A stretch of DNA of 64,000 nt from an uncultured Desulfobacter sp. (GCA_963665095.1 OY762069.1:1664001-1728000), one strand, 5' to 3'; positions 13,096 to 58,664 are shown, numbered from the stretch's first letter. Translations and numbers: made by a program. The notes: generated by a model from the sequence alone, not told the origin.

Positions 13096-13176
13096 TGGGG
13101 TCACATCTTGATTAGTGATTAGTCGGGCTTGAGTATGAAACAGCATTATTAAATCACTGATCAAGATGTGACCCCA
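13096..13176. repeat. REP-like inverted repeat pair (25-bp arms)
   Basis: TGGGGTCACATCTTGATTAGTGATT (13096-13120) and AATCACTGATCAAGATGTGACCCCA (13152-13176), one mismatch. Confidence 0.8.
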
Positions 13177-13182
13177 ATCTGC

Positions 13183-13220
13183 ATGCTGAATACAACCAAG
13201 CCTTATGCTGAATACAACCA
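13183..13220. repeat. 16-bp direct repeat x2, 22-bp period
   Basis: ATGCTGAATACAACCA at 13183-13198 and 13205-13220. Confidence 0.85.
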
Positions 13221-13246
13221 GGATAGACTTCGCAGTGAAGATGGGA

Positions 13247-13288
13247 ATCGGTATCAAAACCGAGGCAATGCCTTGGCTTTAATACCGA
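13247..13288 (-). terminator. Long hairpin downstream of the ABC operon (terminator or RNA stabiliser)
   Basis: ATCGGTATCAAAACCGAGGCA-A-TGCCTTGGCTTTAATACCGAT. Confidence 0.55.
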
Positions 13289-13308
13289 TCTGGTGTGACG
13301 GGATCAAA

Positions 13309-15272: not shown

Positions 15273-15276
15273 GGCT

Positions 15277-16158: not shown

Positions 16159-16159
16159 T

Positions 16160-17104: not shown

Positions 17105-17124
17105 TGTTTTTCTTTATATCAATC

Positions 17125-18735: not shown

Positions 18736-18972
18736 TGGTTCCTCCTTAAAGCGTATGTTTATTATGCGTGTACTTCCGCTGCCTGGCATTCTCATCAAAA
18801 TCACGAAAGCCTGCGGATGCGCTTATAGCCTTTGGGTACCTATCTTTCCACTGATGATCAACTTACTGCATTGCCGGCAATACTCAAACCTCAATATTCG
18901 GGTATGGATCAGGTAGATGCCCTACCCGTTTATTTCAAAGGCTGTCTCCCTGAAGGGTATAATTCAAATCCA

Positions 18973-39411: not shown

Positions 39412-39509
39412 AGTGAAGCTCCTCATAAACAAAAATTACCATCCATAAATGGTGATATTCTTAAGATCAATCTGCAATAAAGCAGTTGAATGTTATAAGG
39501 AGCTTCACT
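39412..39509 (+). promoter_or_regulatory. Hairpin sequestering the transposase RBS
   Basis: AGTGAAGCTCCT (39412-39423) is the exact reverse complement of AGGAGCTTCACT (39498-39509) just before ATG 39510. Confidence 0.75.
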
Positions 39510-40958
39510 ATGAAAAAAAGAAACATTTTTCAAAATCAAAGTCAAGAAATCCTTACTCTTTTTGAAATGGCAAAAGACAGGTCCAAGGTCATGTGCATCC
39601 CTATGGATTATGCCAAAAAAGATCATGTGGCCATGTTTTGCAATGGGAATGGAAAAATCCTTCGAAAGCCCTTTTCCATAAAAAACACACCTGAAGGAGT
39701 GGAATATTTAATTGATCAAGTCACAAAATCTTGTCACCATCATGGGATTGATATTAAAAACACTCTTTTCGGCGGGGAGGATTGCGGGACATATGCGAAT
39801 AATTTCATTGAAGCTCTACGTTCGGAAAATTGGCTGGTGGCAGGGGTAAATGCACTTGATGCCAAAAGACACCGGGAAAATATTCAAGCGAGCACGGACC
39901 GGTTAGATCTATTGGGTATCAGTAAAATGCTTCTTAACTGTAGTGGGAATTGTTCTCCGGCTCAATCCGGAATTTATTGGAATTTGAGAACGCTTTGTCG
40001 AGAAAGACAGAAATTGGTGGTCACGAAAAGCGGTGTGAAAAACAGGGTTCACACCATTGTAGATCAGATTTTCCCGGGCTTTTTAAATGAAGCCAAAAGT
40101 GGAATTCCTCCATTTTCACCGGCATCATTAATATTGATGGAAGACCGATTCAGTGTGCATCAGATCCGGCGCCGAAGGCCAGCCGCATTAGTGAAAAACC
40201 TTGCTAAACAAGGTTTACCGAATCCAGAGATCCGTGCAGAAAAACTTCAACGTTATGCCTCCCAGGTCCTCAGACCCCAAAAAGATCATATTGTTACATT
40301 GCAGATGTCATTAAAACAGCAAGTCAGATTAATTCTATGCCTCCAAGAAAGCACTGACCAATTAGAACGAGATATCGCGGCACATTCAGCGCAGACCCCA
40401 GGCGCATTCTTAACCACCATTCGAGGAATAGGTTTAATTTTAGCTGCCGGTGTAAGTGCTGAAATTGGAGATCCCGATAAGCAGAAATCTTTGACCAATC
40501 TGGTGTCTTATGCCGGCATAATTCCGCAAATAAAACAGACCGGAGGGGAACAAGGGAAAACTCAAGTGATTAGAGTCGGTAAGCGGTGTAATCGTATTTT
40601 AAAAAATTATGTCGTCCAGTCCGGCTTGCATATGGGGATTCATGGCCCCGACGAATTAATTGCCGACTATAAACGAAGAGAAGCCCGGGATCAGCATGCT
40701 GATTTCGGCATGGCAAGAAGATTTCTGAGAATGGCAATGTGTTTGATGCGGACCCACCAAGCTTATTTGCCAAAGCGCTTAAGAAGCCAACAGTGCCCGA
40801 TGGAAGAACGAGGCCGTTATTACCAAGAGGCTTGGCCGTTACTCATGGATAAATGGAGAAGGGTCAAGAAGTTAGATATTGCCTTCGATAAAAAAATGCC
40901 CTTGGGGCAATGGCGCAACATGATACAGGAGCTTTATGACATACAATTAAGGTTGTAG
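39510..40958 (+). CDS. IS110-family transposase/recombinase (482 aa)
   Basis: RuvC-like DEDD motifs MDYAK, GGED, TDRLD; C-terminal L.TIRGIG...AEIGD...YAGI.P...QTGG. Confidence 0.88.
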   Translation: MKKRNIFQNQSQEILTLFEMAKDRSKVMCIPMDYAKKDHVAMFCNGNGKILRKPFSIKNTPEGVEYLIDQVTKSCHHHGIDIKNTLFGGEDCGTYANNFIEALRSENWLVAGVNALDAKRHRENIQASTDRLDLLGISKMLLNCSGNCSPAQSGIYWNLRTLCRERQKLVVTKSGVKNRVHTIVDQIFPGFLNEAKSGIPPFSPASLILMEDRFSVHQIRRRRPAALVKNLAKQGLPNPEIRAEKLQRYASQVLRPQKDHIVTLQMSLKQQVRLILCLQESTDQLERDIAAHSAQTPGAFLTTIRGIGLILAAGVSAEIGDPDKQKSLTNLVSYAGIIPQIKQTGGEQGKTQVIRVGKRCNRILKNYVVQSGLHMGIHGPDELIADYKRREARDQHADFGMARRFLRMAMCLMRTHQAYLPKRLRSQQCPMEERGRYYQEAWPLLMDKWRRVKKLDIAFDKKMPLGQWRNMIQELYDIQLRL

Positions 40959-41009
40959 ATAAAACATAAGCTTGATTTGTTGTCTCATATCAAAATTTTA
41001 ACGATTTTT

Positions 41010-41180
41010 GCGGACGGGATGGCTTCGTTGATACTGTCGCATTGGCTCAGACTAACGAGTCTCATTGACGGCTACTAATAGAATGTCCACCATGTCCGCT
41101 CCAATACTTTCATTATGGCTCAAAGGTGCTCTGATCCTCGGAAATTATGCCGAGAGATCTTGTTATACCAGTATGCCAAA
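41010..41180 (+). ncRNA. Putative bridge/seek RNA with target-binding and donor-binding loops
   Basis: Two stem-internal loop-stem modules; loop segments match the element ends and right flank (see findings). Confidence 0.72.
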
Positions 41181-41499
41181 TTTTGGATTTGTAGGGCATG
41201 GTCTTCCACCAGTAACGCAAATTATTTAAAATCGATGACTTTGGGATACAATTGATCTTATTGTGTATCATTAAAAAACCGATCATATCGGACAGGGATG
41301 GTACGTCTCAAAAAAATATTGAAAATATTCCTTGTTTTCTCTCTGGTGCTCTATTAGTGCTTGGTCAACTATGTGACAAATTGAAGAAAAAAATTGCAAG
41401 CATTTTCAGATGATGTTAATGACTTTATCATTATTAGTTTGAATATTAATACAATTCTGACTATGCTTACTTTTTACACCTACCAGAGACAACCATAAT

Positions 41500-44469
41500 A
41501 TGAGCAGCTTGATCGACAACACTTTCAGAAATGAATTGAACCGTATGGAAATGCTTCGCCCTGAAGAGGAGTTGTCGAGTCTTTATTTTGTCGCTGACAA
41601 AAATGAAGTACAACCGTGTATACGTATTGCTCTTGAACAGGCTGAGCGTTATAAGGCTGACGCAGTTTTTTTCCGAATTTTTCCTATTGGTGACAACCGT
41701 TCCCCGCTTCCCCAGATTTATATTTATTATGACACTGCGCTGTCCCTTGACGATACCTATTATGCCGGGATACACCGCCGCCTATGGAATGCGGGCATTC
41801 CCCCATTAGTATTCATCCTGACTGCCGGGCAGGTGAAAATCCTCAATTGTCGGCAGAAACCTGAAATTGACAAAGACTCCAAAAAACCTGTCTTCACTCC
41901 ATTCCGTACACTTGAAAGGGTAATAGCCGTCGAACGGGCATTTGCCGCTCGGGAAATTGCAGCCGGAACACTCTGGGAAAATACAAAATTTAAGAGTGAC
42001 TTCGTACTTGAAAAAACCGCTTACTTCGAGTTACTTACTCACCTCAAGTCGTTCCGACAGAAACTGCTTTTATTAAAAATTTTGTCAGAGCCTACTGTCA
42101 ACCGAATCTTGGTTATGGCGATTTTAGTCAAATATTTGAATGATCGCCAGGATTCTTCAGGAAACCGTGTTTTCGCGGAAGGGTTCCTGCGTCGATTTTC
42201 CAGTGCGAATAATGATGATATTGAATCTCTCTTCATAGAGAAGGGGAGTTGTATTAAGCTGTTTGATCATTTAAGCAGGCATTTTAATGGTGGCATTTTC
42301 GAATTGACCGATAGTGAAAAAAAGGAATTGTATCAGGCTGATCTCTCACCGATTGCGGTCTTCCTGAAAGGAGATCAGGACCCGACAGGTCAGATGCTCT
42401 TTTGGCCGCTCTATTCGTTTGAAGACCTTCCGGTTGAGTTAATCAGCAATATTTACGAGGAGTTTCTGGCAAAAAAAGAGGATGGTAACGGTGTGGTTTA
42501 CACGCCACCAATGATGGTTGATTTTCTTATAGATCGTTGCTTGCCTCTTGAAGCAAGTACGCTTTCCCGAAAAATTCTCGATCCTGCATGTGGTTCCGGT
42601 GTTTTCCTGGTTGGCGCTTTCAAACGCTTGATACAATGCTGGCGTGTGGCCAACGACTGGAAACAGCCGACTTATCGTGATTTACAGGCAATTCTTAAGA
42701 ATAGCATTTTCGGAATCGACAAAGCGCCCGAAGCAGTTCTGGTAACGGCTTTCAGCCTCTGCGTTGCGCTTTGCGATGAATTGGAGCCGTTGATTATCTG
42801 GAATGAACTTAAATTCGACAACCTGCAAAATAGTAATCTCCAGGATAGAGATTTTTTTGAAATTGTTGAATCTGGGGAATTCAATAATCACTTCGAGTTA
42901 ATTATCGGCAACCCTCCGTTTGACAGCAAACTGACGACTAATGCCGCCAAGCGGATTGAGAAAACTGAAGCCAAAGTTCGTCCCAAACTCCCAGATACTC
43001 AACTTGCGCTACTTTTTCTTGAGCAATCCTTCCGACTTGCCCGTAAGGATGCAACGGTCTGCCTGATTCAACCGGCGGGGCCGCTGCTGTACAACGGTAA
43101 CGCACTGCCTTTCCGCGGCCACCTGTTTGAGCAATTCGCCATTAATCAGGTATTTGATTTCACTCCGCTGGAAGGGGTTCTTTTCAAAGCAAAGGTTGCG
43201 GCAGCGGCGATAGTTGGCTTAAATAAGCCCCCATCGACAGAGAAAATTCAGCATATAACAGTACGTAGAACCAAGGCGCTCAAGGAAAAACTTCTGTTTG
43301 AGTTGGACCCCTATGATTTCCACTGGATACCTCGTGAATCCGTAAAGCAGAAACAATATGTATGGAAAACCAATCTGCTTGGCGGCGGAAGGCTTCACCG
43401 AATGATGGATCGCCTAATTACCGGCGTTAAAACATTGGGCGAGTATCTGGCAGAGAAAAAGGATAATAAAGGCTGGCAATTTGGTGAAGGTTTTAGTGTC
43501 GGATGCGGAAGTTATTTAAATGAGTTGTCCAACGCAAAAGAATTAGCAAAATTATCGCCCAAAAAACTAACGTACCAGTTTAAATTAAAAAGACCCCCTA
43601 AGCTTGCTTCTTGGATAACAGGGAAAAACAATGTTCCGCCAAAAGCTTTGACAAAAGATGGCATTGATTGGAATTCAGTAAAGAGTATCAATAAACTTTT
43701 TTTTGAAGAACCACGCAGGACGACTCAACTCATTTTCTCCGCTCCACATGTGTTAATCAGAGAAAAAGTTGATGGATTGGCTATCCCCGCTGTTTACACG
43801 GACAAAAAATTGGTGTTCACTAATCAAGTTATTGGGGTGTATGCACCTGAGAATGAACAGAATCATTTGAAAGTTCTTGCTGAGCGCTTAAACGACTCCA
43901 AACTCTTTGGGATTCTATCCATATTGCTTAGCGGGAGAATACTGGTCGGGCGATCAAACTCTTTGTATGCAAGAGATATCATGGCATTACCTTATCCTGA
44001 TGATCTGCAGGATATAGATCTGAATTTCTGGGAGCAAGCCCTTGTCGATGACATTGATAACTATCTCGTCGATTTTCGGCGCAGCGGTGAAAAGGCCGCA
44101 ATTTTATCCGAAACAGATGAATCCGACCTGCACAATTTCGGCAAAATGTACTGTAGTATTCTTAACCCTGTGTACAAACAATTCCGCCCCTTAGACCCAA
44201 TTCAAATTGGTTCCTTTATCTGTTACCCTTTTTGCTACGGAGATACGCCCACGATTGAAATGCCTGAAGAAAACAAGGTCGTTCCATTTCTTGATAGTTT
44301 GTTACACTGCCAACAAGGCAGCCGCCTGTTTGTAAACCGCATACTTCGCATGTACGAACAAAACGTAATCTTTATGATCAAACCGAATCAGAAGAGGTAC
44401 TGGCTACGTTCTATAGCTCTTCGCGACGCTGACGAGACATTAGTTGATCTCTTGGAACAAGGATATTGA
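41500..44469 (+). CDS. N6-adenine DNA methyltransferase, Type IIG/Eco57I-like architecture
   Basis: ELISNIYEEFL, GVVYTP, ILDPACGSGVFL (motif I), IIGNPPF (motif IV), TRD-like C-terminal half. Confidence 0.88.
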   Translation: MSSLIDNTFRNELNRMEMLRPEEELSSLYFVADKNEVQPCIRIALEQAERYKADAVFFRIFPIGDNRSPLPQIYIYYDTALSLDDTYYAGIHRRLWNAGIPPLVFILTAGQVKILNCRQKPEIDKDSKKPVFTPFRTLERVIAVERAFAAREIAAGTLWENTKFKSDFVLEKTAYFELLTHLKSFRQKLLLLKILSEPTVNRILVMAILVKYLNDRQDSSGNRVFAEGFLRRFSSANNDDIESLFIEKGSCIKLFDHLSRHFNGGIFELTDSEKKELYQADLSPIAVFLKGDQDPTGQMLFWPLYSFEDLPVELISNIYEEFLAKKEDGNGVVYTPPMMVDFLIDRCLPLEASTLSRKILDPACGSGVFLVGAFKRLIQCWRVANDWKQPTYRDLQAILKNSIFGIDKAPEAVLVTAFSLCVALCDELEPLIIWNELKFDNLQNSNLQDRDFFEIVESGEFNNHFELIIGNPPFDSKLTTNAAKRIEKTEAKVRPKLPDTQLALLFLEQSFRLARKDATVCLIQPAGPLLYNGNALPFRGHLFEQFAINQVFDFTPLEGVLFKAKVAAAAIVGLNKPPSTEKIQHITVRRTKALKEKLLFELDPYDFHWIPRESVKQKQYVWKTNLLGGGRLHRMMDRLITGVKTLGEYLAEKKDNKGWQFGEGFSVGCGSYLNELSNAKELAKLSPKKLTYQFKLKRPPKLASWITGKNNVPPKALTKDGIDWNSVKSINKLFFEEPRRTTQLIFSAPHVLIREKVDGLAIPAVYTDKKLVFTNQVIGVYAPENEQNHLKVLAERLNDSKLFGILSILLSGRILVGRSNSLYARDIMALPYPDDLQDIDLNFWEQALVDDIDNYLVDFRRSGEKAAILSETDESDLHNFGKMYCSILNPVYKQFRPLDPIQIGSFICYPFCYGDTPTIEMPEENKVVPFLDSLLHCQQGSRLFVNRILRMYEQNVIFMIKPNQKRYWLRSIALRDADETLVDLLEQGY

Positions 44470-45170
44470 GCTCCATGAAAAAACATCCAACCGGACGGAT
44501 GCTTGCAGGCACAGGCACCTTACTTGGTCCATCTCAAAATACACAATTCAGCATGGTTGTTACGTTTATCAAGGCAAAACTTCCCATATTTGCGGAATCC
44601 ATTTTGAAAACTAAAATTTGTAGTGAAAATGGCCTAAACAGCCGACTTTCTCGTTTTATTACCAATGCTGCCGCCCAAGAATTTTTTTTTGCGAATCGTG
44701 AGTGTATGGAAGATGAAACCTATGGAAGCAGTCCCGCAGTTGATATCGGCGTTTATCTTAAAATGGATGATACTGAAATCGATCCCCCAATGATTACGGT
44801 TTTTGAAGGGAAAAGGCTTACAACAAAATTGACTAAAAAACGACGTCGCGAATATGTCATAGGGCATGAAGAAAGTGGGAAACATATTCGCTGCGGCGGC
44901 ATAGAGCGTTTTAAGCTTGCCATCCACGGAGCCAGACTCAATCGTGCCGGAATGATAGGTTATATTCAAGATGGGACATCTGACGATTGGCAAAAGAAAA
45001 CCAATACATGGATTTGCGAGCTATGCAACCAGCCTTTTAATCCGGTATGGTCAGAGCGTGAACAGCTTACGCGGCAAAAATCCGATGAACGAGTTATTGA
45101 ATATTCATCAATTGTAAACCGTATCGACAGCGTACTTCATCTGGCTCACCTGTGGATTGACCTTTCCTAA
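44466..45170 (+). CDS. Hypothetical protein, probable PD-(D/E)XK nuclease; start uncertain (44466/44475/44499)
   Basis: PAVDIGV...VFEGKRL (D...ExK), EYV, GGIERFK, GMIGY; overlaps or abuts the MTase stop. Confidence 0.65.
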   Translation: MSSMKKHPTGRMLAGTGTLLGPSQNTQFSMVVTFIKAKLPIFAESILKTKICSENGLNSRLSRFITNAAAQEFFFANRECMEDETYGSSPAVDIGVYLKMDDTEIDPPMITVFEGKRLTTKLTKKRRREYVIGHEESGKHIRCGGIERFKLAIHGARLNRAGMIGYIQDGTSDDWQKKTNTWICELCNQPFNPVWSEREQLTRQKSDERVIEYSSIVNRIDSVLHLAHLWIDLS

Positions 45171-45405
45171 TAACGTGCCGTTCGAAAGTGAACTATTCCA
45201 TATTAGGTTCGGCCATTAGATTTCCAGAGATGGTGATACTCAATTTCTAACCCCAAAAATCACTGGACAAGCCGGTAATTTTGCGTTGACTTTGTCTATT
45301 AGTCCTGTTTTTTTTGTAAAACGGTTCACCCCTATATGTTGTGCCTGCTTTGAAAAGCCCAGAATCAATTTAATAGAACAAATTATAGACTCAGGGTGGG
45401 TAGAG

Positions 45406-45441
45406 AAAAAGGCCCCGGCAGTAAACTCCACTGCCGGGGCC
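45406..45441 (-). terminator. Terminator of gdhA
   Basis: Minus strand GGCCCCGGCAGT...ACTGCCGGGGCC followed by TTTTT. Confidence 0.85.
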
Positions 45442-45490: not shown

Positions 45491-46840
45491 TTAAACAATA
45501 CCCTGGTCCATCATGGCGTCGGCCACTTTGACGAACCCTGCGATATTGGCGCCGTTCACGTAGTTGCCGGGGGTGCCGTACTCTTCGGCAGCGTCCAGGC
45601 AGGCGTGGTGGATGCTTTGCATGATGCCTTTGAGCTTGGCTTCGACTTCTTCTCTGGTCCATTTGATGCGCATGGAATTCTGGGACATTTCCAGGCCGGA
45701 AACAGCCACGCCGCCGGCATTGGAGGCTTTGCCCGGTGCATAGAGCAGCTTGTGATCCAGGAAAAGGTCAATGGCTTCGGGTGTGGAGGGCATATTGGCC
45801 CCTTCACACACAAGATAGACACCGTTGTTTACCAGGTTTTCGGCATCTTCTCCATTGACTTCGTTCTGGGTGGCGGAAGGGAAGGCGCAATCTGCTTTGT
45901 GATCCCACAAAGGATTGCAGTCTTCACTGCCGTCAATGGCGGCATATTTGGCTGAGGGGTATTTCTGGGCATACTCTTTGATGCGGCCGCGCTTGACGTT
46001 TTTCAGATACATCACCCAGGCAAGTTTGTCCTCATCAATGCCTTCCTCATCATAGATGTAACCGGAGGAATCAGACAGGGTCACAACCTTTCCGCCGAGC
46101 TGGTTGATCTTCTGGGTGGTGAACTGGGCGACGTTGCCGGAACCGGAAACCAGACAGATCTTCCCTTCAAGGCTTTGACTGCGGGTGGCCAGCATCTCAT
46201 CTGCAAAGAAAACAGAGCCGTATCCTGTGGCTTCGGGCCGGATAAGAGATCCGCCCCAGTTCAGCGCTTTGCCGGTGAGAACCCCTGTAAACTCGTTTTT
46301 CAGTTTTTTATACATACCGAACAGATAGCCGATTTCACGTCCGCCCACGCCGATGTCCCCAGCTGGGACGTCTGTGTCATGGCCGATGTGACGGTAGAGT
46401 TCAGACATGAAACTCTGGCAGAAACGCATTACTTCGAAGTCGGACTTTCCCTTGGGATCGAAGTCGGAACCGCCTTTACCGCCCCCCATGGGAAGGGTGG
46501 TCAACGCGTTTTTGAACACCTGCTCAAAGGCCAGGAACTTCAGAATGGACAGGTTCACGGAAGGATGGAACCGCAGCCCCCCCTTATATGGTCCGATGGC
46601 GGAATTCATTTCAATTCTGAACCCGCGGTTTACCTGCACCCTTCCCTGGTCATCCACCCAGGGCACCCGGAACTGGATGATCCTTTCCGGTTCCACCATA
46701 CGCTCCATGATACCGGCCTGCCGGTATTCAGGATTTTTATCCAGCACTGGTTTTACAGATTCCGCGACCTCATGAACGGCCTGGTGAAATTCTTTTTCAA
46801 AAGGATCTCTTTTGCTGACAACATCCATAATGGTTCCCAT
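45491..46840 (-). CDS. gdhA: NADP-specific glutamate dehydrogenase
   Basis: GPYKGGLRFHPSV, GGGKGG, DVPAGDIGVG, RPEATGYG, SGSGNVA. Confidence 0.95.
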   Translation of the reverse strand: MGTIMDVVSKRDPFEKEFHQAVHEVAESVKPVLDKNPEYRQAGIMERMVEPERIIQFRVPWVDDQGRVQVNRGFRIEMNSAIGPYKGGLRFHPSVNLSILKFLAFEQVFKNALTTLPMGGGKGGSDFDPKGKSDFEVMRFCQSFMSELYRHIGHDTDVPAGDIGVGGREIGYLFGMYKKLKNEFTGVLTGKALNWGGSLIRPEATGYGSVFFADEMLATRSQSLEGKICLVSGSGNVAQFTTQKINQLGGKVVTLSDSSGYIYDEEGIDEDKLAWVMYLKNVKRGRIKEYAQKYPSAKYAAIDGSEDCNPLWDHKADCAFPSATQNEVNGEDAENLVNNGVYLVCEGANMPSTPEAIDLFLDHKLLYAPGKASNAGGVAVSGLEMSQNSMRIKWTREEVEAKLKGIMQSIHHACLDAAEEYGTPGNYVNGANIAGFVKVADAMMDQGIV

Positions 46841-46904
46841 CTTACGCTATCTCCTGTTGAGTAATAAATAGTGTCTGAAAAATGACGTTGTGTTCGAACA
46901 ACAG

Positions 46905-47270
46905 TTATTCTGTTTCCAGATGTGCTGCTGAAACAAAAATTTTCTTGGCAAAGTCGTCCACCACCCAGGTGACAGGGGTGCCTTTGGGTACTACAAAGGC
47001 GTCACCGGCCTTGAATTCATGGGTAGGGCCGTCTTTTTCAATGATTTTTACACTGCCTTCCATGATGATGCAGAACTCAAGTTTGGGGTGCAGATGCGTC
47101 CAGGATCCTGCGGTGCAGGTCCAGATGCCGGACTTGAAGTTGCCGGAAGCATGCTCGAAATAGGTCCAGTTATTGGCCACGGGCGCACCGGATGCCGGGT
47201 TCTTTTTGGGACCTTCGGTGTGATGCAGCACTTCTGATTTATCAATAACGACGATTTTTCCTTCGCTCAT
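46905..47270 (-). CDS. Cupin domain protein (DUF861-like)
   Basis: GIWTCTAG, EFC.I.EG, AGDAFVVPKG, W. Confidence 0.82.
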   Translation of the reverse strand: MSEGKIVVIDKSEVLHHTEGPKKNPASGAPVANNWTYFEHASGNFKSGIWTCTAGSWTHLHPKLEFCIIMEGSVKIIEKDGPTHEFKAGDAFVVPKGTPVTWVVDDFAKKIFVSAAHLETE

Positions 47271-47341
47271 ATCTGTTTCTCCTAGGGGTTGTGCCTGTCC
47301 GTAGATTGGGGCGGACAGGCGCTGGTTCGGTTTACTTTTTT

Positions 47342-48466
47342 TTATGCGGCTTTGGTCTCAAACCGGTCGGGCCGGAATACATCCAGGGGAATTTCCGGTT
47401 CCTGCCCTGTCACCAGCTGGCACATGAGACGTCCCATGATGGGGGCCAGCTGAAAGCCGTGGGCGGAAAATCCGCAGACATGGAAAAGACCCGGTACTTT
47501 GACCGATTCGCCCACAATGGGCACCTTGTCGGCCAGGCACCCTTCAAAGGCGGCCCAGCAACGGATCATCTGGGCTCTGGAAAGCTTTGGCAGAATTTCA
47601 ATCATCAGCTTGGAGGCCTTGGTCATCTGCATGGGATCAATCCAGATCATCTCCCGGTCCAGATCCAGGGGAGACCGATAGCCACCACCCACGATAATGG
47701 TACCGTTTTTTGCCGCCATCAGTCCGAGCAGGCGTCCTGTCAATCCCAAAGAGGTACCGTTCATGAAACCGGGTACCCGGCTGGTCACCATCATGGTGGG
47801 GGCTGCGGCAAATACAGGCAAGGGATCATCCAGCATGTTTGAAAACCGGGCAGCCCAGGCACCTGTGGCATTGACCAGCACTTCGCTTTCAAACACCTCA
47901 CCGGCTGCCGTTTTTACCCGGAAACCGTTTGCTGTGGTCCGGGCTTCCACCACCCGGGTTCTGGAGTGGATTTTCACCCCTTTGTTCTCGGCGGTTTTGG
48001 CATAGGCTTTGGACGTAAGCAGGGGGTTTGCCAGGCCGTCGGTGTAGCAGACCAGCCCGCCCACAACATGTCCGGAAAGGTTGGGAGACAGCTTCATCAC
48101 CTGGTCGCGGTCCACCATGACTTCATGGTCATACCCCAGATCCCTCAGGGTTTTACACCGTTTTTCAAGTTTTTCCAGCTCTTCTTCGGATTCTGCCAGA
48201 CGCAGCCGGGGAGAGACATGGAAACCGCAGTCGGAATTCACGGTTTTTTCATGCAGGTCCCACAGTTTTCTGGAGGCAAGGGCCATGGGAATTTCCCGGA
48301 CATCCCTGCCCTGGCACCGGACACCGCCGGAGTTATGGCCCGAGGCATGACGGCCGGGCACATCTTTTTCCAGAATGGTGACGGACTTTCCTTTTAACGC
48401 AAGCTCCAGGGCTGTGGCACATCCCATCAACCCGCCGCCCACGATTAATACATCACTTTTCATCAT
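47342..48466 (-). CDS. DadA-family FAD oxidoreductase (OoxB/HcnC-like catalytic subunit)
   Basis: IVGGGLMG, ASG.NSGGVR, DGLANP, CGFSAHGFQLAP. Confidence 0.85.
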   Translation of the reverse strand: MMKSDVLIVGGGLMGCATALELALKGKSVTILEKDVPGRHASGHNSGGVRCQGRDVREIPMALASRKLWDLHEKTVNSDCGFHVSPRLRLAESEEELEKLEKRCKTLRDLGYDHEVMVDRDQVMKLSPNLSGHVVGGLVCYTDGLANPLLTSKAYAKTAENKGVKIHSRTRVVEARTTANGFRVKTAAGEVFESEVLVNATGAWAARFSNMLDDPLPVFAAAPTMMVTSRVPGFMNGTSLGLTGRLLGLMAAKNGTIIVGGGYRSPLDLDREMIWIDPMQMTKASKLMIEILPKLSRAQMIRCWAAFEGCLADKVPIVGESVKVPGLFHVCGFSAHGFQLAPIMGRLMCQLVTGQEPEIPLDVFRPDRFETKAA

Positions 48467-49865
48467 CCCCTCCCAGTTGTGCGTTGGCCATCTCCCCAAG
48501 GGTTACGGGTTTGATTGGCGGGCGGACTCTCAAGGGCCGGTTGGCTTCCGGATTGGTGTTGGATGCGGCAGCCACAATTTCCACCAGGGCCGGGCCGCAC
48601 ATGCGTCCCTGACAAGGTCCCATTCCGCACCGGGCAATGGATTTGATCTCGTTATGATCGGTAAAGCCCTGGGCCACAAGTTCCCGGATACTGCCTGCAG
48701 TCACCCCTTCACACCGGCAGACAATGGTATTGTCCGGCACCTGATACAGGTGGGTGGCCGGCCGGTACATCTCATCCACAAAAGGCCGTGGCAAAAGTTC
48801 CTTGGCCAGGGCCTTTCGCAAAGGCGCGGCCTGTTTTTCATATTCGCCCTGGGTGAAGCTGCGCATCTCCCGCTCAATGGCAAGCGCAGTTAACTGCCCT
48901 TTGATCCGGGCAGGTTCTCCACCATGGACAAAGGCCCCGTCACCAGGGATAAAAATCTGTTCCTGGCTGGTGCGTCCGTCCGCATCGGTTTTGGGATGCC
49001 AGTACCGCTGTACCGGATTCCAGATATGACGGCAGCCTGCCTGGCGTAACAAAGAGGTATTTGGGATCACGCCCTCATGGATCAGCAAGGTTGCCACCTC
49101 AAACTCCAGGGGCTGTCCCTTTGACTGGGCCGTGACCCGACACACAGCATCCTTGCCATGGGCGGCAAGGCCTGTAACCTTATTATAAATGGGAACCTTG
49201 GCTTTTTTTGCAGCAAGCTTTGCCGCCCCCATGAGCACCACGCCTTTGGAAAGATACAGCGGTCGCATCATGGCCTTGGGCATCTGTTTCATCGCGCCAA
49301 AGGGAGGCAGGCTGCCGGAACCGGTATTCAAAATCGCCTTGATGGGGGCGTTAAGATCCAGAAGATGTTTGGCCACCAGCCAGAACAAGGGGCCGGAACC
49401 TGCCATGACAAGGGGATTGGAAGGATAATAGCCAGAATCCTTGAACAGGTTTGAAATCCCGCCGCAGGTCATGACACCGGGCAGGGTCCATCCCTCAAAG
49501 GGTACCGGACGCTCCATGGCACCGGTACCCAACACCAGGTACTTGGCTGTAAACTTTCCGGAAGCCCCGTTCCTGGACCAGAAAATATCGCCGTTAGGCT
49601 CTGCCTGCCAGACACGGGTGGCCGGCAGGTAGTCCAGTTTGGAGGCGGAAAAGCCCTTCAATACGGCAAGGCCGGCTGCATAATCTTTGCCAAGTACCTT
49701 ACGCTGGGCAGATGAGGAGCCGGCAAGGTTCCTGTAAATCTGCCCGCCGGGCTTGGCCTGTTCGTCCAGCAGTGCCACCTCAAGCCCCTTGCTGCAAAGC
49801 TCAGTGGCACAGGCCAGACCCGAAGGCCCTGCGCCTGTAATCACCACATCATATGTGTGTTTCAT
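48453..49865 (-). CDS. FAD/NAD(P) oxidoreductase with BFD-like Fe-S domain (OoxA/HcnB-like)
   Basis: GAGPSG, GGQIYR, ERPVPF.GWTLPGV, VCRCE, RCGMGPCQGRMC, RPP.KPV. Confidence 0.88.
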   Translation of the reverse strand: MKHTYDVVITGAGPSGLACATELCSKGLEVALLDEQAKPGGQIYRNLAGSSSAQRKVLGKDYAAGLAVLKGFSASKLDYLPATRVWQAEPNGDIFWSRNGASGKFTAKYLVLGTGAMERPVPFEGWTLPGVMTCGGISNLFKDSGYYPSNPLVMAGSGPLFWLVAKHLLDLNAPIKAILNTGSGSLPPFGAMKQMPKAMMRPLYLSKGVVLMGAAKLAAKKAKVPIYNKVTGLAAHGKDAVCRVTAQSKGQPLEFEVATLLIHEGVIPNTSLLRQAGCRHIWNPVQRYWHPKTDADGRTSQEQIFIPGDGAFVHGGEPARIKGQLTALAIEREMRSFTQGEYEKQAAPLRKALAKELLPRPFVDEMYRPATHLYQVPDNTIVCRCEGVTAGSIRELVAQGFTDHNEIKSIARCGMGPCQGRMCGPALVEIVAAASNTNPEANRPLRVRPPIKPVTLGEMANAQLGGDDEK

Positions 49866-50176
49866 GATTCCTGCTCCACCTTTTGCTGACGTTTAATCTG
49901 CATGCCGTCGACCACCTGCTCCAGACAGGCCTGCCGGTTGGGAACCCCGTCGATTTCACACAGGCACTCAAAGCAGACCCCCATAAGACAGTGGGGGCTG
50001 CGCTTGTCATGGTCGGCTGCGGAGTGGCAAAAGTGTTCTGCATCCTTGTTCAGGATGGCGGCGGCCACAGTGATGCCGGCAGGTACCTGCATGGGCCGCC
50101 CCTCCACATGGATGGTGACAGTCTTTTCCGGCGTGTCCATGGAAACCCTGTTGAATGTGCGTTTATTATCTGTCAT
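49862..50176 (-). CDS. [2Fe-2S] subunit (HcnA/OdhC-like)
   Basis: TVAAA, CLMGVCFECL...RQAC. Confidence 0.88.
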   Translation of the reverse strand: MTDNKRTFNRVSMDTPEKTVTIHVEGRPMQVPAGITVAAAILNKDAEHFCHSAADHDKRSPHCLMGVCFECLCEIDGVPNRQACLEQVVDGMQIKRQQKVEQES

Positions 50177-50214
50177 ATGCCTATCATCCTTTGCTTGGCC
50201 ATTTTTCCAAAGAC

Positions 50215-51330
50215 CTAAACAGCGTAGGGTTCATCCCAGAGTACCAGTTCCTGGCCAAGGCCTTTTTCCAGCGCATTTTCATAAAGCGTCATGGCCCAGG
50301 CGATATCCTGAAGGATCATGCCGTTGGAGACAAAGTATTTGCGTTTGGCACTGTTACGATCCACTTTGAAATTGCCGGCTACGACCTGGCCCAGGTCATG
50401 GATATCGCTGTCTTTGATTTTTCCGGCATCCACAAGATCATGCAGCTGGGGATGGGGATAGGTCTGCTCACCTTCGGGCAGCATGCGGCCTTCAATTTTA
50501 TAGGTTTTCTGCATTTCCCAATTATCCGGCACAATGTAGGCACTCATCAGATAGCTGTCTTCCACATTGACCCTGCCGGGAAGCGTCAGCAAAGAGCCCT
50601 CTTTCAGGCAGCGGTCTTCAAGCAGCGGGGAGTGATCGCCGGAAATAGCGGAAGTAACGACATCCATCCCTTTATATGCATCTTCATGATTATCACAGAT
50701 CACCACTTCCACGCCGAATTTTTCGGTCATCTCTTTGGCAAAACGTTCAGACGCATCGGTGTTGATATCAAATACCCGAACCTGTTTGATGGAAGGAAGT
50801 GCTGAAAGTATGGCGATGGTGGAGTATCTGGCAATGGGACCTGCGGCAATGACGCCTAAGGTTTCACTGTTCTCAGGGGCAAGATAGCGGGCGGACAGGC
50901 CGACCACGGCGCCGGTACGCATGCCGCTTAGGATGTTGGCCTCCATGATGGCAAGCGGGCGGGCAGTTTCTGCTTCGTTCAGGGTCATCAGCAGAATGGA
51001 GCGGGGAAGACCGTGATTTTTAGGATTAAAAATATTGGAACCATACCATTTGTTGCCGCACACTTTGAAACGGCCGCCAAGGTATCCCTGCAGTCCCATG
51101 AACCGCTGGTCCGGGCCGCCCTTGGGCATGCCCTCAAACTTGGGCTCTTTGGGAAACCACACCCGTTGACCGTGGGAGTTCCGGGTGGAACCGCCCATGA
51201 CATAATCGCCCTGTCCAAGCAGGGTGAATGCTTCTTCCATAACATCAATGCATTTTGCAATATCTGTAACACCGGCCTCAATCATATCTTTCTGGCCCAA
51301 AAATTTCATAGCCAATCTTGATGAACCCAT
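50215..51330 (-). CDS. Ornithine cyclodeaminase/mu-crystallin family protein
   Basis: GDYVMGG...SHG, KWYGSN, GLPRS, LSGMRTGAV, GM..QD.AWA. Confidence 0.82.
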   Translation of the reverse strand: MGSSRLAMKFLGQKDMIEAGVTDIAKCIDVMEEAFTLLGQGDYVMGGSTRNSHGQRVWFPKEPKFEGMPKGGPDQRFMGLQGYLGGRFKVCGNKWYGSNIFNPKNHGLPRSILLMTLNEAETARPLAIMEANILSGMRTGAVVGLSARYLAPENSETLGVIAAGPIARYSTIAILSALPSIKQVRVFDINTDASERFAKEMTEKFGVEVVICDNHEDAYKGMDVVTSAISGDHSPLLEDRCLKEGSLLTLPGRVNVEDSYLMSAYIVPDNWEMQKTYKIEGRMLPEGEQTYPHPQLHDLVDAGKIKDSDIHDLGQVVAGNFKVDRNSAKRKYFVSNGMILQDIAWAMTLYENALEKGLGQELVLWDEPYAV

Positions 51331-51348
51331 GATGTTTTCCTCTCTTTA

Positions 51349-51498
51349 CCTGAAATTGTGTTTGAATGTAAAGGCACTCACCTGCGGCGTTGCTTCACAA
51401 CATTCAAATCCTCACGTACTAAAGTACGCTTGCGGTTTAAATATTGCTTGCGCCTTGCATCTGAGCACCTTTCCATCCAAACAGGCTGCAGTTTCAGG
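51349..51498. repeat. About 150-bp imperfect palindromic element (REP/MITE-like)
   Basis: CCTGAAATTG..TGTTTGAATGTAAAGG / CCTTTCCATCCAAACA..CAGTTTCAGG arms around a central CGTAC-TAAA-GTACG hairpin. Confidence 0.7.
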
Positions 51499-51611
51499 CT
51501 CTATTTTTATTGTTAGTTGTTGATCCGGTCGCTATCGTCCCGGTTATTTTTTCTCAAACCTGTTTTGTTCCGCCCCGTCAGGCTACGGCCATACCGAAGC
51601 GGGTTCACTTT

Positions 51612-53390
51612 TTATGCGCCTTGCTGGGGTCTCATGTCTGCTTTATCAATGCCGGCTACGGCAACCGGTTTTTTCATGGCATCCCGGCGGAACGGTTCGC
51701 CAAGTTCCATGTTGGTCATGACCTCGATGAAGGTGGTTTTGCCCTCTTCCATCTGGCGTTTGACGGCTGCTTCAAGCTCTTTTGTCACATCATCCATGCT
51801 CCAGGCCTTTACGCCTTCAACCCCGCACGCCTTGGCAATTTCAGAGTAGTGAACGTCGCGGTCAAGCTCGGTGCCCACAAAGTTGTCGTTGTACCAGAGG
51901 GTGGAGTTTCTCTTTTCCGCACCCCAGTGGTAATTGCGGAAAACCACCATGGTGATGGCCGGCCACTCGTCACGGCCGCAGGCAGCCATTTCGTTCATGG
52001 AAATACCAAAGGCACCGTCACCGGCAAAGCCCACCACCGGCACATCAGGACAAGCGATTTTGGCACCCAGGATGGCGGGAAAACCGTAACCGCAGGGTCC
52101 GAACATGCCAGGTGCCAGGTATTTTCGGCCTGCTTCAAAACAGGGATAGGCATTTCCAATGGCGCAGGAGTTGCCAATATCGCAGGACATGATGGCCTCC
52201 TTGGGCAGCGCCTTGACAATGGCACGCCATGCCATTCTGGAGGTGATCTTTTCAGGGTCGGCGGCCTGGGCACGCTGGTTCCAGGTGGTACCGGGATCGT
52301 CCTGTTCATGGTCCATGCCTTCAAGCTCTGTGGCCCACGCTTCTTTGGTGGATGCGATCAGCGCCATTCTGGCTTCACGGCCGGCATCACCGGCGGTATC
52401 GGACAGGTTGGCAAGAAGGGTGTCGGCCACTTTTTTGGCATCCCCCACAATACCAACGGAAACGGGCTTGGTCAGTCCGATGCGGTCGGGGTTGATGTCC
52501 ACCTGGATAAGGGCTGCATCCTTGGGCCAGTAATCAATGCCGTAGCCGGGCAAGGTGGAGAAGGGGTTGAGCCGGGTGCCCAGGGCCAGAACCACGTCCG
52601 CCTTGGAGATCAGTTCCATGCCTGCCTTGGAGCCGTTGTAGCCCAAGGGCCCTGCAAACAGGGGGTGGGATCCCGGAAAAGCGTCATTGTGCTGGTAGCC
52701 GCAGCATACCGGGGCAGCCAGTCGTTCAGCCAAAGCTTTGGAGGCCTCAATGGCACCGCCGATGACAACTCCGCCGCCGTTCAGGATCACAGGGAATTTT
52801 GCATTGGAAAGCAGGTCGGCAGCTTTGGCAAGGGCCTCTTCTCCGCCGGAAGGCCGTTCAAACTCAACAATGGGGGGCAGCTCAATGTCAATCACCTGGG
52901 TCCAGAAGTCCCGGGGCACGTTGATCTGGGCAGGGGCAGAGGCCCGTTTTGCCTGGAGGATGACGCGGTTGAGAACTTCAGCCATACGGGAAGGATGCAG
53001 GACCTCTTCCTGGTATGCCACCATATCTTCAAAAGCCGCCATCTGGGGCACTTCCTGGAAACCGCCCTGCCCCATGGACATATTGGCGGCCTGGGGCGTG
53101 ACCAGCAGCAGCGGGGTGTGGTTCCAGTAAGCTGTTTTCACAGGGGTTACAAAATTGGTGATGCCAGGCCCGTTCTGGGCGATCATCATGGACATTTTAC
53201 CGGAAGCTCTGGTAAAACCGTCCGCCATCATACCGGCATTGCCTTCATGTCCGCAGTCCCAGAACGTGATCCCGGCCTTGGGAAAAAGGTCTGACACCGG
53301 CATCATGGCAGAACCGATAATTCCGAATGCGTGTTCAATTCCGTGCATCTGGAGCACTTTAACAAAGGCTTCTTCCGTGGTCATCTTCAT
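51612..53390 (-). CDS. xsc: Sulfoacetaldehyde acetyltransferase (ThDP-dependent)
   Basis: MKMTTEEAFVKVLQMHGIEHAFGIIGSA, AQNGPGITNF, GDGAFG ThDP motif, WGAEKRN, ELGEPFRRDAM. Confidence 0.93.
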   Translation of the reverse strand: MKMTTEEAFVKVLQMHGIEHAFGIIGSAMMPVSDLFPKAGITFWDCGHEGNAGMMADGFTRASGKMSMMIAQNGPGITNFVTPVKTAYWNHTPLLLVTPQAANMSMGQGGFQEVPQMAAFEDMVAYQEEVLHPSRMAEVLNRVILQAKRASAPAQINVPRDFWTQVIDIELPPIVEFERPSGGEEALAKAADLLSNAKFPVILNGGGVVIGGAIEASKALAERLAAPVCCGYQHNDAFPGSHPLFAGPLGYNGSKAGMELISKADVVLALGTRLNPFSTLPGYGIDYWPKDAALIQVDINPDRIGLTKPVSVGIVGDAKKVADTLLANLSDTAGDAGREARMALIASTKEAWATELEGMDHEQDDPGTTWNQRAQAADPEKITSRMAWRAIVKALPKEAIMSCDIGNSCAIGNAYPCFEAGRKYLAPGMFGPCGYGFPAILGAKIACPDVPVVGFAGDGAFGISMNEMAACGRDEWPAITMVVFRNYHWGAEKRNSTLWYNDNFVGTELDRDVHYSEIAKACGVEGVKAWSMDDVTKELEAAVKRQMEEGKTTFIEVMTNMELGEPFRRDAMKKPVAVAGIDKADMRPQQGA

Positions 53391-53456
53391 GGGTTTTCCT
53401 CCATTTTTTTAATTGCCTGCCTGATTGGCGGCCGGCAAATTTAATTCATCAAGCTC

Positions 53457-53508
53457 TCTGATACATCTAATATCTGGCACATCTGATATCTGATATCTGA
53501 TATATCAG
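53457..53508. promoter_or_regulatory. Heptamer repeat/palindrome upstream of xsc (probable operator)
   Basis: (ATCTGAT)x3 at 53481-53501, degenerate copies upstream, palindrome CTGATATATCAG at 53497-53508. Confidence 0.6.
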
Positions 53509-53884
53509 CTATGTTGTATTTTCTCTATATAGCCTTTTATTTTAAATGTAAACAATTTCTGTGCCGATTTTCTTCACGCACACAGAAAAAAAACATCACT
53601 GCGGAAAAGCCCTTATTCACCGCCTTTCTTAAAAGTACCCATGGATAGAAACGCCAACTGGCCAGAACCAAAGGAATCTGCATACAGGGCATTTTTGCCC
53701 CTTATTTTCATTGAGCCGCTTCTGATACGCCGACGCATCCTGCACTAACCTGCTGGTTTACAAAGAAATCCGCAGGAATAATATCGTATGGGGCAATTTA
53801 GACCCGGTAAATTTATCAGCATTTATCAATTTAACAATCTGAAAACAAATATAATATCGACGTATGTCCCGAATATGCTGGGGC

Positions 53885-54061
53885 ATAAATACCCCGCCGT
53901 TAGGGGAAAACCTCTTCATTGCCTCGGGCATTGCCAATGTCAGCATTGAGGAGATATCGCTTAAAGCAATTCCCTTCTCCATTGTCGCCGTCATTGCGGT
54001 CTTTATCATTGCCTTTATCCCCGAGATCACCCTGTGGCTTCCCAGAATGATGAGATATTGA
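53885..54061 (+). pseudogene. TRAP transporter large permease (DctM) C-terminal remnant
   Basis: TPPLGENLFIASGIA...PF...FIPEITLWLP is the DctM C-terminal signature; the remainder is absent. Confidence 0.75.
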
Positions 54062-58134: not shown

Positions 58135-58664
58135 TAAGTTCTCACTTTGTTAAAAACAATTAAGATGGGACACAGGTCTTATGCCCCATCACGGTGTCCT
58201 TTTACCTTTACCGCATCAAGGAAGTCAACACCCTCAAAAGAGCTATTGTAACCTATTGCCCGTAGATTTCAGAATTCTATTTTGAATCGGCCTGAGTTGC
58301 TTTATTTGACCAAAGAGTTATCCGGCCAATCTGGCCCCCTATCTGATTCCAAAATTAAATAGTGCCTGCACGCAGGCATGTCCAGCAGATGTTGACATCG
58401 ACATCAAACTGCGGGAAAGTTTTCTCATGTTGCTGCGCAAGATCTGCCAGAACGCTTTGCTTTACCTTTTTTTTTGTGTATCTTATTTTGGATTCCATTT
58501 GCATACATGTTGACAAATCAAACATAGTCATTTCAAAAAGGCCAAGCTATTTTCGCAGGCAGGCCTGGACGGCATATGTTCATGTAAATGATTGAAGCGG
58601 TATGTCGCAGGATCAAAAAGGCATTAACAAAGAAAGACGCAGAGCATATGCGCAGAAGGTTGCC

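Follow-up and report, generated by a model that had tools for sequence, protein, structure and literature searches.

Gene content of the xsc array

The window analyzed here is a stretch of 64,000 nucleotides (nt) from the genome of an uncultured Desulfobacter sp. (GCA_963665095.1, OY762069.1:1664001-1728000), and this study concerns an array of seven co-oriented minus-strand genes located at 45491-53390. These are, in order, xsc (encoding sulfoacetaldehyde acetyltransferase, Xsc), an OCD/mu-crystallin family dehydrogenase gene (hereafter OCD), the gamma, alpha, and beta subunit genes of a predicted flavin- and Fe-S-dependent dehydrogenase, a cupin gene, and gdhA (Table 1). The five genes from OCD to the cupin gene are referred to as the module. 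The open reading frames (ORFs) coincided exactly with the gene coordinates in Table 1, and together with Pfam and NCBIfam models they confirmed the co-oriented gene set that the initial annotation had read here (xsc, OCD/mu-crystallin, [2Fe-2S], OoxA-like, OoxB/DadA-like, cupin, and gdhA). The three oxidoreductase genes overlapped, as had also been claimed: the gamma and alpha reading frames share 4 nt, and alpha and beta share at least 14 nt (14 nt if beta starts at the methionine of MMKSD at 48466, 47 nt if it starts at the TTG at 48499). Gaps of 281, 38, 71, and 64 nt separate xsc from OCD, OCD from gamma, beta from the cupin gene, and the cupin gene from gdhA, respectively, and the sole strong terminator of the region lies 3' of gdhA.

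Xsc covered positions 1-578 of the 579 positions of model TIGR03457, with PF02776, PF00205, and PF02775 all detected, and was 88-89% identical at the amino acid (aa) level to the Xsc of xsc-tpa-ald loci in the same genus. The host genome (6.9 Mb, one contig) contained dsrAB and two pta genes outside the window. The window had been described as lacking taurine:pyruvate aminotransferase (Tpa) and pta, which was borne out by a negative tblastn search with Tpa and by the position of all four genomic pta-family matches outside it. Queries for Tpa, Ald, TauE, the tau-type GntR regulator, and the TRAP transporter taken from related loci had no match in the window except for a dctM remnant (tblastn, E ≤ 1e-3). 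No second close DAO-family gene was found in the window with beta as the query, and Rfam models at the gathering threshold matched only two tRNAs in the window, with no riboswitch ahead of xsc or OCD.

The genome harbored paralogues of several of these genes. A second xsc (90.7% aa and 83.8% nt identity to the window xsc) was set in a cluster at C1:1936000-1955999 with the order TetR-SDR-thiamine-diphosphate enzyme (2-hydroxyacyl-CoA lyase/acetolactate synthase-like)-BASS transporter-SDR-xsc, lacked the upstream palindrome described below, and probably serves another sulfonate such as isethionate. The sole Tpa-like gene of the genome was 68% identical to the Tpa proteins encoded in taurine loci of the same genus and in Desulfocapsaceae, whereas the latter two are 78-79% identical to each other; because of this identity level and its neighbors, an aldehyde dehydrogenase gene and an AsnC regulator gene, it was regarded as a paralogue. 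An AlaDh_PNT alanine dehydrogenase was not found in the genome (tblastn, PF01262), the best match reaching 29.7 bits over 37 of 214 positions. The window gdhA had a paralogue at C1:309644-310990 (92.7% aa and 83.1% nt identity), and is a diverged duplicate of this resident gene; as an array member, gdhA is restricted to the operon version of this genome. An intact taurine-type TRAP transporter, 65-73% identical to that of Desulfosediminicola, was located at C1:2541000-2559000 next to genes for an 814-aa DAO+GCV_T protein (dimethylglycine/sarcosine dehydrogenase-like), EtfAB, and a sigma-54 activator; these genes may form a demethylase system acting on an N-methylated amine, possibly N-methyltaurine.

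Table 1. Positions of the array genes and associated features in the window, with the supporting matches (model cut-offs in parentheses).
Feature	Position	Strand	Support
xsc	51612-53390	-	TIGR03457 912.7 bits (cut-off 676.4); NF005713 1016 bits
OCD/mu-crystallin NAD(P) dehydrogenase, module gene 1	50215-51330	-	PF02423 196.8 bits; NF004848 363 (cut-off 362)
Gamma subunit, Fer2_4 [2Fe-2S] protein, 104 aa	49862-50176	-	PF13510 86.5 bits
Alpha subunit, 470 aa	48453-49865	-	PF07992 (Pyr_redox_2), PF04324 (BFD), PF17806 (SO_alpha_A3)
Beta (catalytic) subunit, DAO family	47342-48466, or to 48499 from TTG start	-	PF01266 242 bits
Cupin_3 (EutQ-like) protein, last conserved module gene	46905-47270	-	PF05899 72 bits
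gdhA, NADP glutamate dehydrogenase	45491-46840	-	NF006929 760 bits (cut-off 536)
Intrinsic-terminator-like hairpin closing the array	45411-45441	-	14-pair stem, 10 G-C pairs, T-rich tail
dctM (TRAP) remnant	53882-54058	+	tblastn and blastn matches
Operator-like repeat run with palindrome TGATATATCA	53456-53510	-	predicted GntR/FCD site
Dispersed palindromic repeat, ~130 nt	51353-51483	.	blastn repeats elsewhere in the genome

Conservation of the module and its association with taurine genes

Relatives of the OCD protein were collected by alignment against a genome set with one member per species, and the best 80 of 596 confirmed relatives, equal to 79 distinct loci, were compared. In related loci, gene calls were the longest ORFs that did not overlap, with Pfam as the sole source of names, and many of these loci are fragments. 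Near-duplicates were merged before counting (L009 with L099 and L100, L012 with L101, L095-L097, L102-L104, and L010 with G218 and G531, the last being the same genome as G574).

The five closest loci among the best 80 (L008-L012, OCD identity of 73-76%) contained OCD, gamma, alpha, beta, and cupin genes in identical order, with 51-79% identity per gene to the window. They originated from Desulfosediminicola flagellatus, a Desulfofustis metagenome-assembled genome (MAG), Desulfogranum marinum, a Desulfocapsaceae MAG, and an unclassified MAG. A metagenome scan added 15 loci (65-77% identity), 13 of which had at least the gamma gene after OCD; the module was distributed among Desulfocapsaceae/Desulfobulbaceae genomes and metagenome contigs. 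OCD was the first module gene in every locus that held the flavoprotein genes, and the cupin gene followed beta in every related locus reaching that far (52-79% identity). Four of the five closest loci had xsc no more than 5 kb away, accompanied by genes for Tpa, Ald, a regulator of the GntR/FCD type, a TRAP transporter, and/or TauE. At the level of lineages, the same distance applied to six of nine loci with enough flanking sequence (the window, L008, L009, L010/L116, L011, and L102+L103), in three arrangements: divergent, module followed by xsc, and xsc followed by module. The L095-L097 set, in which the upstream part is cut off, had a TauA/NMT1-type ABC transporter downstream.

The distribution of beta paralleled that of xsc. 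A close beta orthologue (76%) was present in only one of 400 further genomes drawn from the phylum. In the family of that genome, f47 (119 genomes), three genomes contained a beta orthologue (75-76%) and xsc occurred in exactly those three; another member (G528) had just a 40% relative with an internal stop. The three genomes share one genus and therefore represent one lineage rather than three events. All of the module-bearing genomes tested (G000, G218, G531=G574, G535, G571, G572, G573, and G575) contained xsc, as did each of the five genomes from which L008-L012 derive. No close beta orthologue was found among 24 other genomes of the window's genus or 36 genomes of its family (best match, 41%), whereas xsc was present in 5 and 10 of them, respectively; xsc can thus occur without the module.

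A shared operator-like motif

Comparing k-mers in the 350-nt upstream regions of xsc and OCD revealed a palindrome with a consensus of about TGTGATATATCA(C/G)A, often flanked by CTGAT(A/G)T repeats. In 18 loci totaling 353,346 nt, its core 8-mer (TGATATAT/ATATATCA) formed 27 merged sites, of which 20 preceded a taurine-related gene by no more than 260 nt (xsc, 9; OCD, 9; tauE, 1; dctP, 1) and the other 7 were elsewhere. Sites ahead of OCD were always at -64 to -92, and those ahead of xsc included all four module-free, same-genus loci with the canonical xsc-tpa-ald order. Degenerate copies preceded OCD in L009 and xsc in L011 and L103, and no clear copy was seen ahead of OCD in L011, L012, and L093. 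In the window, a run of 7-nt repeats around TGATATATCA precedes the xsc start by about 65-120 nt, and the motif was not found ahead of OCD. TGATATATCA occurred exactly once in the window, or six times with up to one mismatch (1.6 expected), and the site was the sole cluster of four half-sites in the genome. A regulon defined from the exact 10-mer palindrome alone was dropped, as its 14 genomic sites (7.7 expected) are non-specific; the motif therefore carries weight only through its position ahead of taurine genes across loci.

GntR-family regulators bind GT...AC palindromes, which fits the form of the motif. A GntR/FCD gene was present in most module loci, and the host genome contained a 58% homologue at C1:4240416-4241075. 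The palindrome is predicted to be the binding site of a GntR/FCD regulator of taurine genes. Because the motif precedes only xsc in the window and the single terminator follows gdhA, co-transcription from xsc to gdhA on one transcript is predicted. None of the 18 sequencing runs listed was recorded as RNA. The proposed link between xsc and the oxidoreductase trio held up on this gene-neighborhood analysis: synteny, co-occurrence, and the common motif tie the module to xsc and taurine genes and indicate, at the sequence level, that their grouping goes beyond chance.

The flavin Fe-S complex and the cupin

PMC4575208 lists motifs that characterize the flavin-containing opine dehydrogenase, the D-hydroxyproline dehydrogenase, and the L-proline dehydrogenase, namely C-x4-C-x2-C-x11~12-C in gamma, C-x-C-x15~20-C-x4-C in alpha, an N-terminal GxGxxG in alpha and beta, and R-x-W in beta. 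All of those checked occurred in the window proteins. Gamma contained C63-x4-C68-x2-C71-x12-C84; alpha contained an N-terminal GAGPSG and C383-x-C385...C413-x4-C418, with a spacer of 27 residues versus the listed 15-20 (Fer2_BFD, 40 bits); and beta contained the N-terminal GxGxxG and R313-x-W315. Solved relatives of alpha were 2gag_A and 1y56_A, and the best PDB match of beta was 1y56_B (110 bits).

Beta was 37-41% identical to the second beta gene (B2) of the B1-C-A-B2 clusters of pTiEU6 and Azospirillum, and its best plasmid matches (37-40%) were the second beta gene of B1-gamma-alpha-B2 clusters on Azospirillum plasmids and pTiEU6. On pTiEU6, a succinamopine Ti plasmid, ABC transporter genes and two octopine/nopaline-dehydrogenase-family genes follow the beta cluster. 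In PMC6733357, the pTiEU6 genes are named sacEFGH, and the extra beta is compared with lecH, a gene of leucinopine/succinamopine catabolism. In alignment A2, the window beta and its orthologues shared W-A-x-x-E/D-G/A with the B2 genes, whereas the E/D position is the carboxylate-binding Arg in B1 genes and glycine oxidases and Tyr in Pyrococcus proline dehydrogenase; Glu319 of beta aligned with the carboxylate-binding Arg of ThiO. Beta is of the type-2 opine dehydrogenase kind. The assignment of the trio to the alpha/beta/gamma flavin Fe-S dehydrogenases of the opine, D-hydroxyproline, and HCN-synthase kind is supported by the domains, the motifs, and the B2 kinship.

Similar to OdhABC (Pseudomonas putida and Bradyrhizobium japonicum), the Ti plasmid nox/oox genes, sacEFGH, and lecFGH, the window contained three tandem, overlapping subunit genes, and it shared with these systems the gamma [2Fe-2S] motif, the BFD-type cluster of alpha, two ADP-binding motifs, and the R-x-W of beta. 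As in opine clusters, an NAD(P)-linked dehydrogenase was encoded alongside, and beta resembled B2 (the sacH position). On the other hand, the array differed from them in its gamma-alpha-beta order, single beta, lack of an opine ABC transporter, and alpha Cys spacing (x27 versus x15-20), in an NAD(P) partner of the OCD rather than the octopine/nopaline dehydrogenase family, and in that its module is linked, in anaerobic sulfite reducers, with xsc and taurine genes. HcnABC (hydrogen cyanide synthase), LhpBEF (D-hydroxyproline dehydrogenase), and Pyrococcus L-proline dehydrogenase have the same subunit set and cofactor logic, and the gamma-alpha-beta order is also that of hcnABC. The fit to HcnABC concerned order and domains, and no Hcn-specific model scored for the window trio. 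Unlike HcnABC and LhpBEF, the window lacked hydroxyproline partners or a glycine/HCN context, and its conserved xsc context argues for a substrate other than that of HcnABC.

Taurine dehydrogenase TauXY consists of a DAO-family catalytic subunit and a small cytochrome-type TauX. Like TauXY, the window DAO subunit would oxidize taurine to sulfoacetaldehyde with a non-NAD acceptor, whereas its partners, in a comparison made by description only, are a [2Fe-2S] gamma, a flavin/BFD alpha, OCD, and a cupin. The solved relative of the cupin was PDB 3bcw, which is uncharacterized, and the ESM Atlas yielded only Cupin_3/EutQ-like clusters without a function. A role of the cupin as an EutQ-type acetate kinase acting on acetyl phosphate was dropped, as PF06249 was below threshold (19.8 versus 21 bits).

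The OCD dehydrogenase

The OCD superfamily comprises tauropine and strombine dehydrogenases, SbnB, archaeal alanine dehydrogenase, 1-pyrroline-2-carboxylate (Pyr2C) reductases, and L-arginine dehydrogenase, according to PMC4141209, which agrees with the earlier statement that the family includes tauropine dehydrogenases and an archaeal alanine dehydrogenase. The sponge tauropine/strombine dehydrogenases, SbnB, alanine dehydrogenase, Pyr2C reductase, and DauB share the PF02423 fold with the window OCD, and all of the superfamily enzymes compared oxidize or reduce a C-N bond beside a carboxylate. The window OCD fell below every equivalog cut-off, with 151 bits against the SbnB model TIGR03944 (cut-off 327) and 117 bits against the archaeal alanine dehydrogenase model TIGR02371 (cut-off 409), and the Pyr2C reductase model was also far below its cut-off; no SbnA-like gene for a pyridoxal 5'-phosphate (PLP) enzyme was present in the cluster. 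It belonged to the uncharacterized NF004848 group, and a literature search for the name of this model ("tyramine oxidase subunit B") found no paper. The best solved relatives were a Pyr2C reductase (6t3e), an alanine dehydrogenase (1omo), and SbnB (4m54), with E-values of 1e-26 to 1e-27.

In the OCD tree, the window was placed in a clade of 15 rows, mostly from taurine-gene loci, and the sister of this clade (support of 100/99) was a 56% homologue from a Bilophila MAG. Bilophila is a genus known for taurine respiration. This homologue was located (L013, 7119-16265) inside an opine-type operon with the order SBP_bac_5-OCD-OppBC-OppDF-Octopine_DH-hydantoinase, a candidate system for opine uptake and cleavage whose substrate is possibly tauropine. 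Members of the next clade adjoined Opp-type transporters, M29 peptidases, a cucumopine-synthase C domain, or a B1-gamma-alpha-B2 set, and more distant proteobacterial OCDs occurred in GntR-glycerate kinase-enolase-OCD-glutamate dehydrogenase (GDH) clusters. In a Pararhizobium plasmid (L057) and Erwinia (L060), the order was GntR-glycerate kinase (DUF4147/MOFRL)-enolase-OCD (42%)-[cupin]-Glu/Leu/Phe/Val dehydrogenase, which is a second case of this OCD group beside a GDH-type gene.

A mosaic operon at the position of tpa-ald

Three same-genus genomes (G011, G019, and G009) contained the canonical arrangement of dctM-dctQ-dctP followed divergently by xsc-tpa-ald. In the window, the module and the duplicated gdhA were located 3' of xsc, at the position that tpa-ald occupies in these relatives. 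About 490 nt upstream of xsc, in divergent orientation between xsc and cvfB, were the last 59 of 446 codons of dctM. This remnant was 59% identical to residues 388-446 of Desulfosediminicola DctM (tblastn) and 83% identical at the nt level to the dctM of the intact TRAP transporter of the genome (C1:2548571-2548739; blastn), and represents what is left of a taurine-type transporter operon that was deleted. The G+C content was 0.50-0.57 in the module genes, 0.43-0.47 in flanking genes, and 0.487 in the genome.

The window OCD grouped (97/92) with the metagenome clade L102-L104, in which the layout was TRAP-xsc-GntR-module, with neither tpa nor ald in approximately 10 kb upstream and 7 kb downstream. 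An origin from Desulfocapsaceae specifically was unsupported, as the window OCD did not fall inside that family in the OCD tree. Two of these contigs also contained Acetokinase-family genes and a class I/II aminotransferase gene beside TRAP-xsc-GntR-module (L103, 713-3231; L102, 6517-7602); the former could take up the acetyl phosphate made by Xsc. At the junction between xsc and the module, the spacer (51331-51611) had a predicted RNA fold of -93.8 kcal/mol (z = -5.8), and the palindromic repeat within it matched, in whole or in part, 46 other places in the genome at 72-85% identity (blastn). This repeat may be an element resembling a miniature inverted-repeat transposable element (MITE) or repetitive extragenic palindrome (REP) that marks a recombination joint.

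Proposed function of the module and alternatives

A role of the module in taurine/sulfoacetaldehyde catabolism, of whatever form, is highly probable. The position of the module in place of tpa-ald, its membership in a taurine regulon, and its kinship to opine dehydrogenases together suggest a route to sulfoacetaldehyde. We consider it somewhat probable that OCD to cupin form a taurine-regulon module that supplies Xsc with sulfoacetaldehyde made from taurine, from a tauropine-type N-(1-carboxyalkyl)taurine, or from both, in place of Tpa and Ald. The flavin Fe-S complex would oxidize a C-N bond in the taurine moiety to an imine, hydrolysis of which would give sulfoacetaldehyde, and electrons would exit through FAD/FMN/[2Fe-2S] rather than as NADH. 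OCD would act on the carboxyalkyl side, either interconverting tauropine + NAD+ and taurine + pyruvate or releasing or regenerating the 2-oxo acid. Xsc would then yield acetyl phosphate and sulfite, which the Pta and DsrAB of the genome could use, GdhA would take the role of Ald by regenerating 2-oxoglutarate or assimilating ammonium, and all seven genes would be transcribed from the xsc promoter. The bond attacked by each enzyme and the order of the steps are deduced from such sequence relationships, and so is the entering compound, for which the linked transporters suggest free taurine and the enzyme kinship suggests a tauropine-type conjugate; the location at the tpa-ald position here and in the nearest clade points to taurine at least as much as to a conjugate. 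Relative to the canonical pathway (TauKLM/TauABC, Tpa, Ald, Xsc, Pta, and TauE), the related modules likewise sit among xsc, TRAP, TauE, and GntR-type regulator genes, the upstream palindrome is the same, and Pta and DsrAB are encoded in the window's genome, whereas the window operon carries the module and gdhA instead of tpa and ald, and the genome yielded no AlaDh_PNT enzyme.

Several observations weigh against this proposal. OCD is not an orthologue of any characterized enzyme, and the model that it matches has an uninformative name and was scored right at its cut-off. Three lineages had OCD or the whole module without xsc nearby: L012/L101, with an OYE gene upstream, an AEC transporter downstream, and xsc on another contig of the same genome; L093, with a GntR/FCD gene upstream of the module; and L098, with OCD alone. 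In Desulfocapsaceae, the module sits beside tpa-ald and is not a simple substitute there, and because of the near-duplicate sets the related loci are not independent. The transporters in module loci were exclusively of the taurine-type TRAP or TauA-like ABC kinds, none being of the opine type (SBP_bac_5 or SBP_bac_3). Furthermore, gdhA was found in none of the other module loci, the folded repeat in the 281-nt spacer could attenuate read-through from xsc, and the characterized flavin opine dehydrogenases described in PMC4575208 cleave the carboxyalkyl side, which would give taurine and not sulfoacetaldehyde. In the initial annotation, the identity of gdhA was correct, and its standing as a conserved part of the system was weakened, given its absence elsewhere and its origin as a diverged duplicate; GdhA may substitute for Ald rather than merely capture nitrogen. 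The proposed conversion of tauropine, taurine, or an N-substituted taurine to sulfoacetaldehyde was partly supported, through the tie of the module to xsc and taurine genes and through its opine-type kin; its substrate may be any of these three.

The side on which the bond is cleaved leads to a different explanation, in which imported tauropine (or an analogue derived from 2-oxoglutarate) is split into taurine and pyruvate by the flavin complex and/or OCD, a separate aminotransferase makes sulfoacetaldehyde, and the module merely widens the substrate range. Such classical opine catabolism is unlikely, yet it has precedent: both the known flavin opine dehydrogenases and the OCD-type tauropine dehydrogenase act on the carboxyalkyl-side bond (PMC4575208 and PMC4141209), and some clusters, on Ti plasmids and in P. 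putida, combine opine dehydrogenases of the flavin and NAD(P) types (PMC4575208). It would also account for the Desulfocapsaceae modules beside tpa-ald, and the 68% Tpa paralogue in the window's genome could be called upon. However, opine catabolism is hard to reconcile with the lack of SBP-type transporters in all module loci, with a module that accompanies xsc without tpa or ald in the window and L102-L104, and with the failure to find in the genome an alanine dehydrogenase that would recycle alanine. The exclusive linkage to taurine-type transporters, the operator shared with canonical taurine loci, the tpa-ald position, and the lack in beta of the alpha-carboxylate-binding Arg of glycine oxidases would suit a plain taurine dehydrogenase, an anaerobic counterpart of TauXY that acts on no carboxyalkyl-taurine and leaves OCD and the cupin with side roles such as alanine or imine handling. 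We regard this as quite unlikely, since OCD is first in every flavoprotein locus and its family acts on alpha-carboxylated amines, its nearest relatives lie in opine-type operons, and the Glu that replaces the Arg is common to type-2 opine dehydrogenase genes and hence not taurine-specific.

Least probable, and very unlikely, is that the module acts on another substrate, e.g., N-methyltaurine, hypotaurine, a D-amino or imino acid such as proline or hydroxyproline, or a non-sulfonated opine, and is merely co-regulated or co-located with taurine genes. The three lineages without nearby xsc would fit, as would the best solved relatives, Pyrococcus L-proline dehydrogenase (1y56) for beta and alpha and Pyr2C reductase for OCD. 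Mere co-location is made less likely by the common operator and by the exact match between the distributions of the module and xsc over 119 genomes, and the loci scanned contained neither an opine transporter nor a proline racemase/epimerase or Pyr4H2C deaminase. Specifically, 4-hydroxyproline epimerase, 1-pyrroline-4-hydroxy-2-carboxylate (Pyr4H2C) deaminase, and alpha-ketoglutaric semialdehyde (KGSA) dehydrogenase were all missing among the proteins scanned in the window, L008-L012, and L093-L103, and the hydroxyproline/proline reading was rejected on this ground.

The proposed conversion of taurine or its conjugate to sulfoacetaldehyde also has a specific form, a PLP-free, saccharopine-like "opine shunt", which we offer tentatively and as rather unlikely. 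Here, OCD would form N-(1-carboxyalkyl)taurine by condensing taurine with a 2-oxo acid (pyruvate or 2-oxoglutarate), oxidation of the other C-N bond by the flavin Fe-S complex would release sulfoacetaldehyde and alanine or glutamate, and Ald (in Desulfocapsaceae) or the recruited GdhA (in the window) would restore the 2-oxo acid and NAD(P)H. The net reaction would be that of a taurine dehydrogenase with a flavin/Fe-S acceptor instead of NAD+. Such a shunt would explain why OCD is always first, why an amino acid dehydrogenase is always nearby, why only taurine transporters are found, and why tpa-ald is missing here.

Taurine and its conjugates are major organosulfonates, and tauropine is found in marine invertebrates, sponges, and red algae. 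Their anaerobic breakdown leads to sulfite and then sulfide, and the known entries to sulfoacetaldehyde are the aminotransferases Tpa and Toa and the dehydrogenase TauXY. If the proposal is true, the flavin Fe-S/OCD module would be a further entry in sediment sulfate reducers, possibly the first bacterial tauropine route, and would change the reading of xsc-bearing genomes that lack tpa. A description of an xsc-linked opine-type route was not found in a literature search whose coverage excluded subscription journals. Two module-bearing isolates (D. flagellatus and D. marinum), the candidate operator, and the candidate GntR/FCD regulator make parts of the proposal testable.

Other features of the window

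The region on the gdhA side of the array (39486-45170, G+C of 0.43) contained an IS110-family transposase gene, a gene for a methyltransferase-endonuclease-like protein of the Eco57I/MmeI type (989 aa), and an ORF of 234 aa with no family assignment. Between this region and the array, the 109 nt beyond the gdhA terminator (45285-45393) had copies of 96-98% identity at C1:6008689 and C1:6189612. Farther away, on the minus strand at 11471-18804, an MTTB-family gene (non-pyrrolysine trimethylamine methyltransferase-like) adjoined a complete Opp-type ABC transporter (SBP_bac_5, two permeases, and two ATPases); these genes may serve a quaternary amine, and no tie to the xsc operon was seen. On the plus strand at 58602-63998, an ORF running off the window encoded a protein of more than 1799 aa with Pkinase, AAA_16, HisKA/HATPase, and receiver domains.

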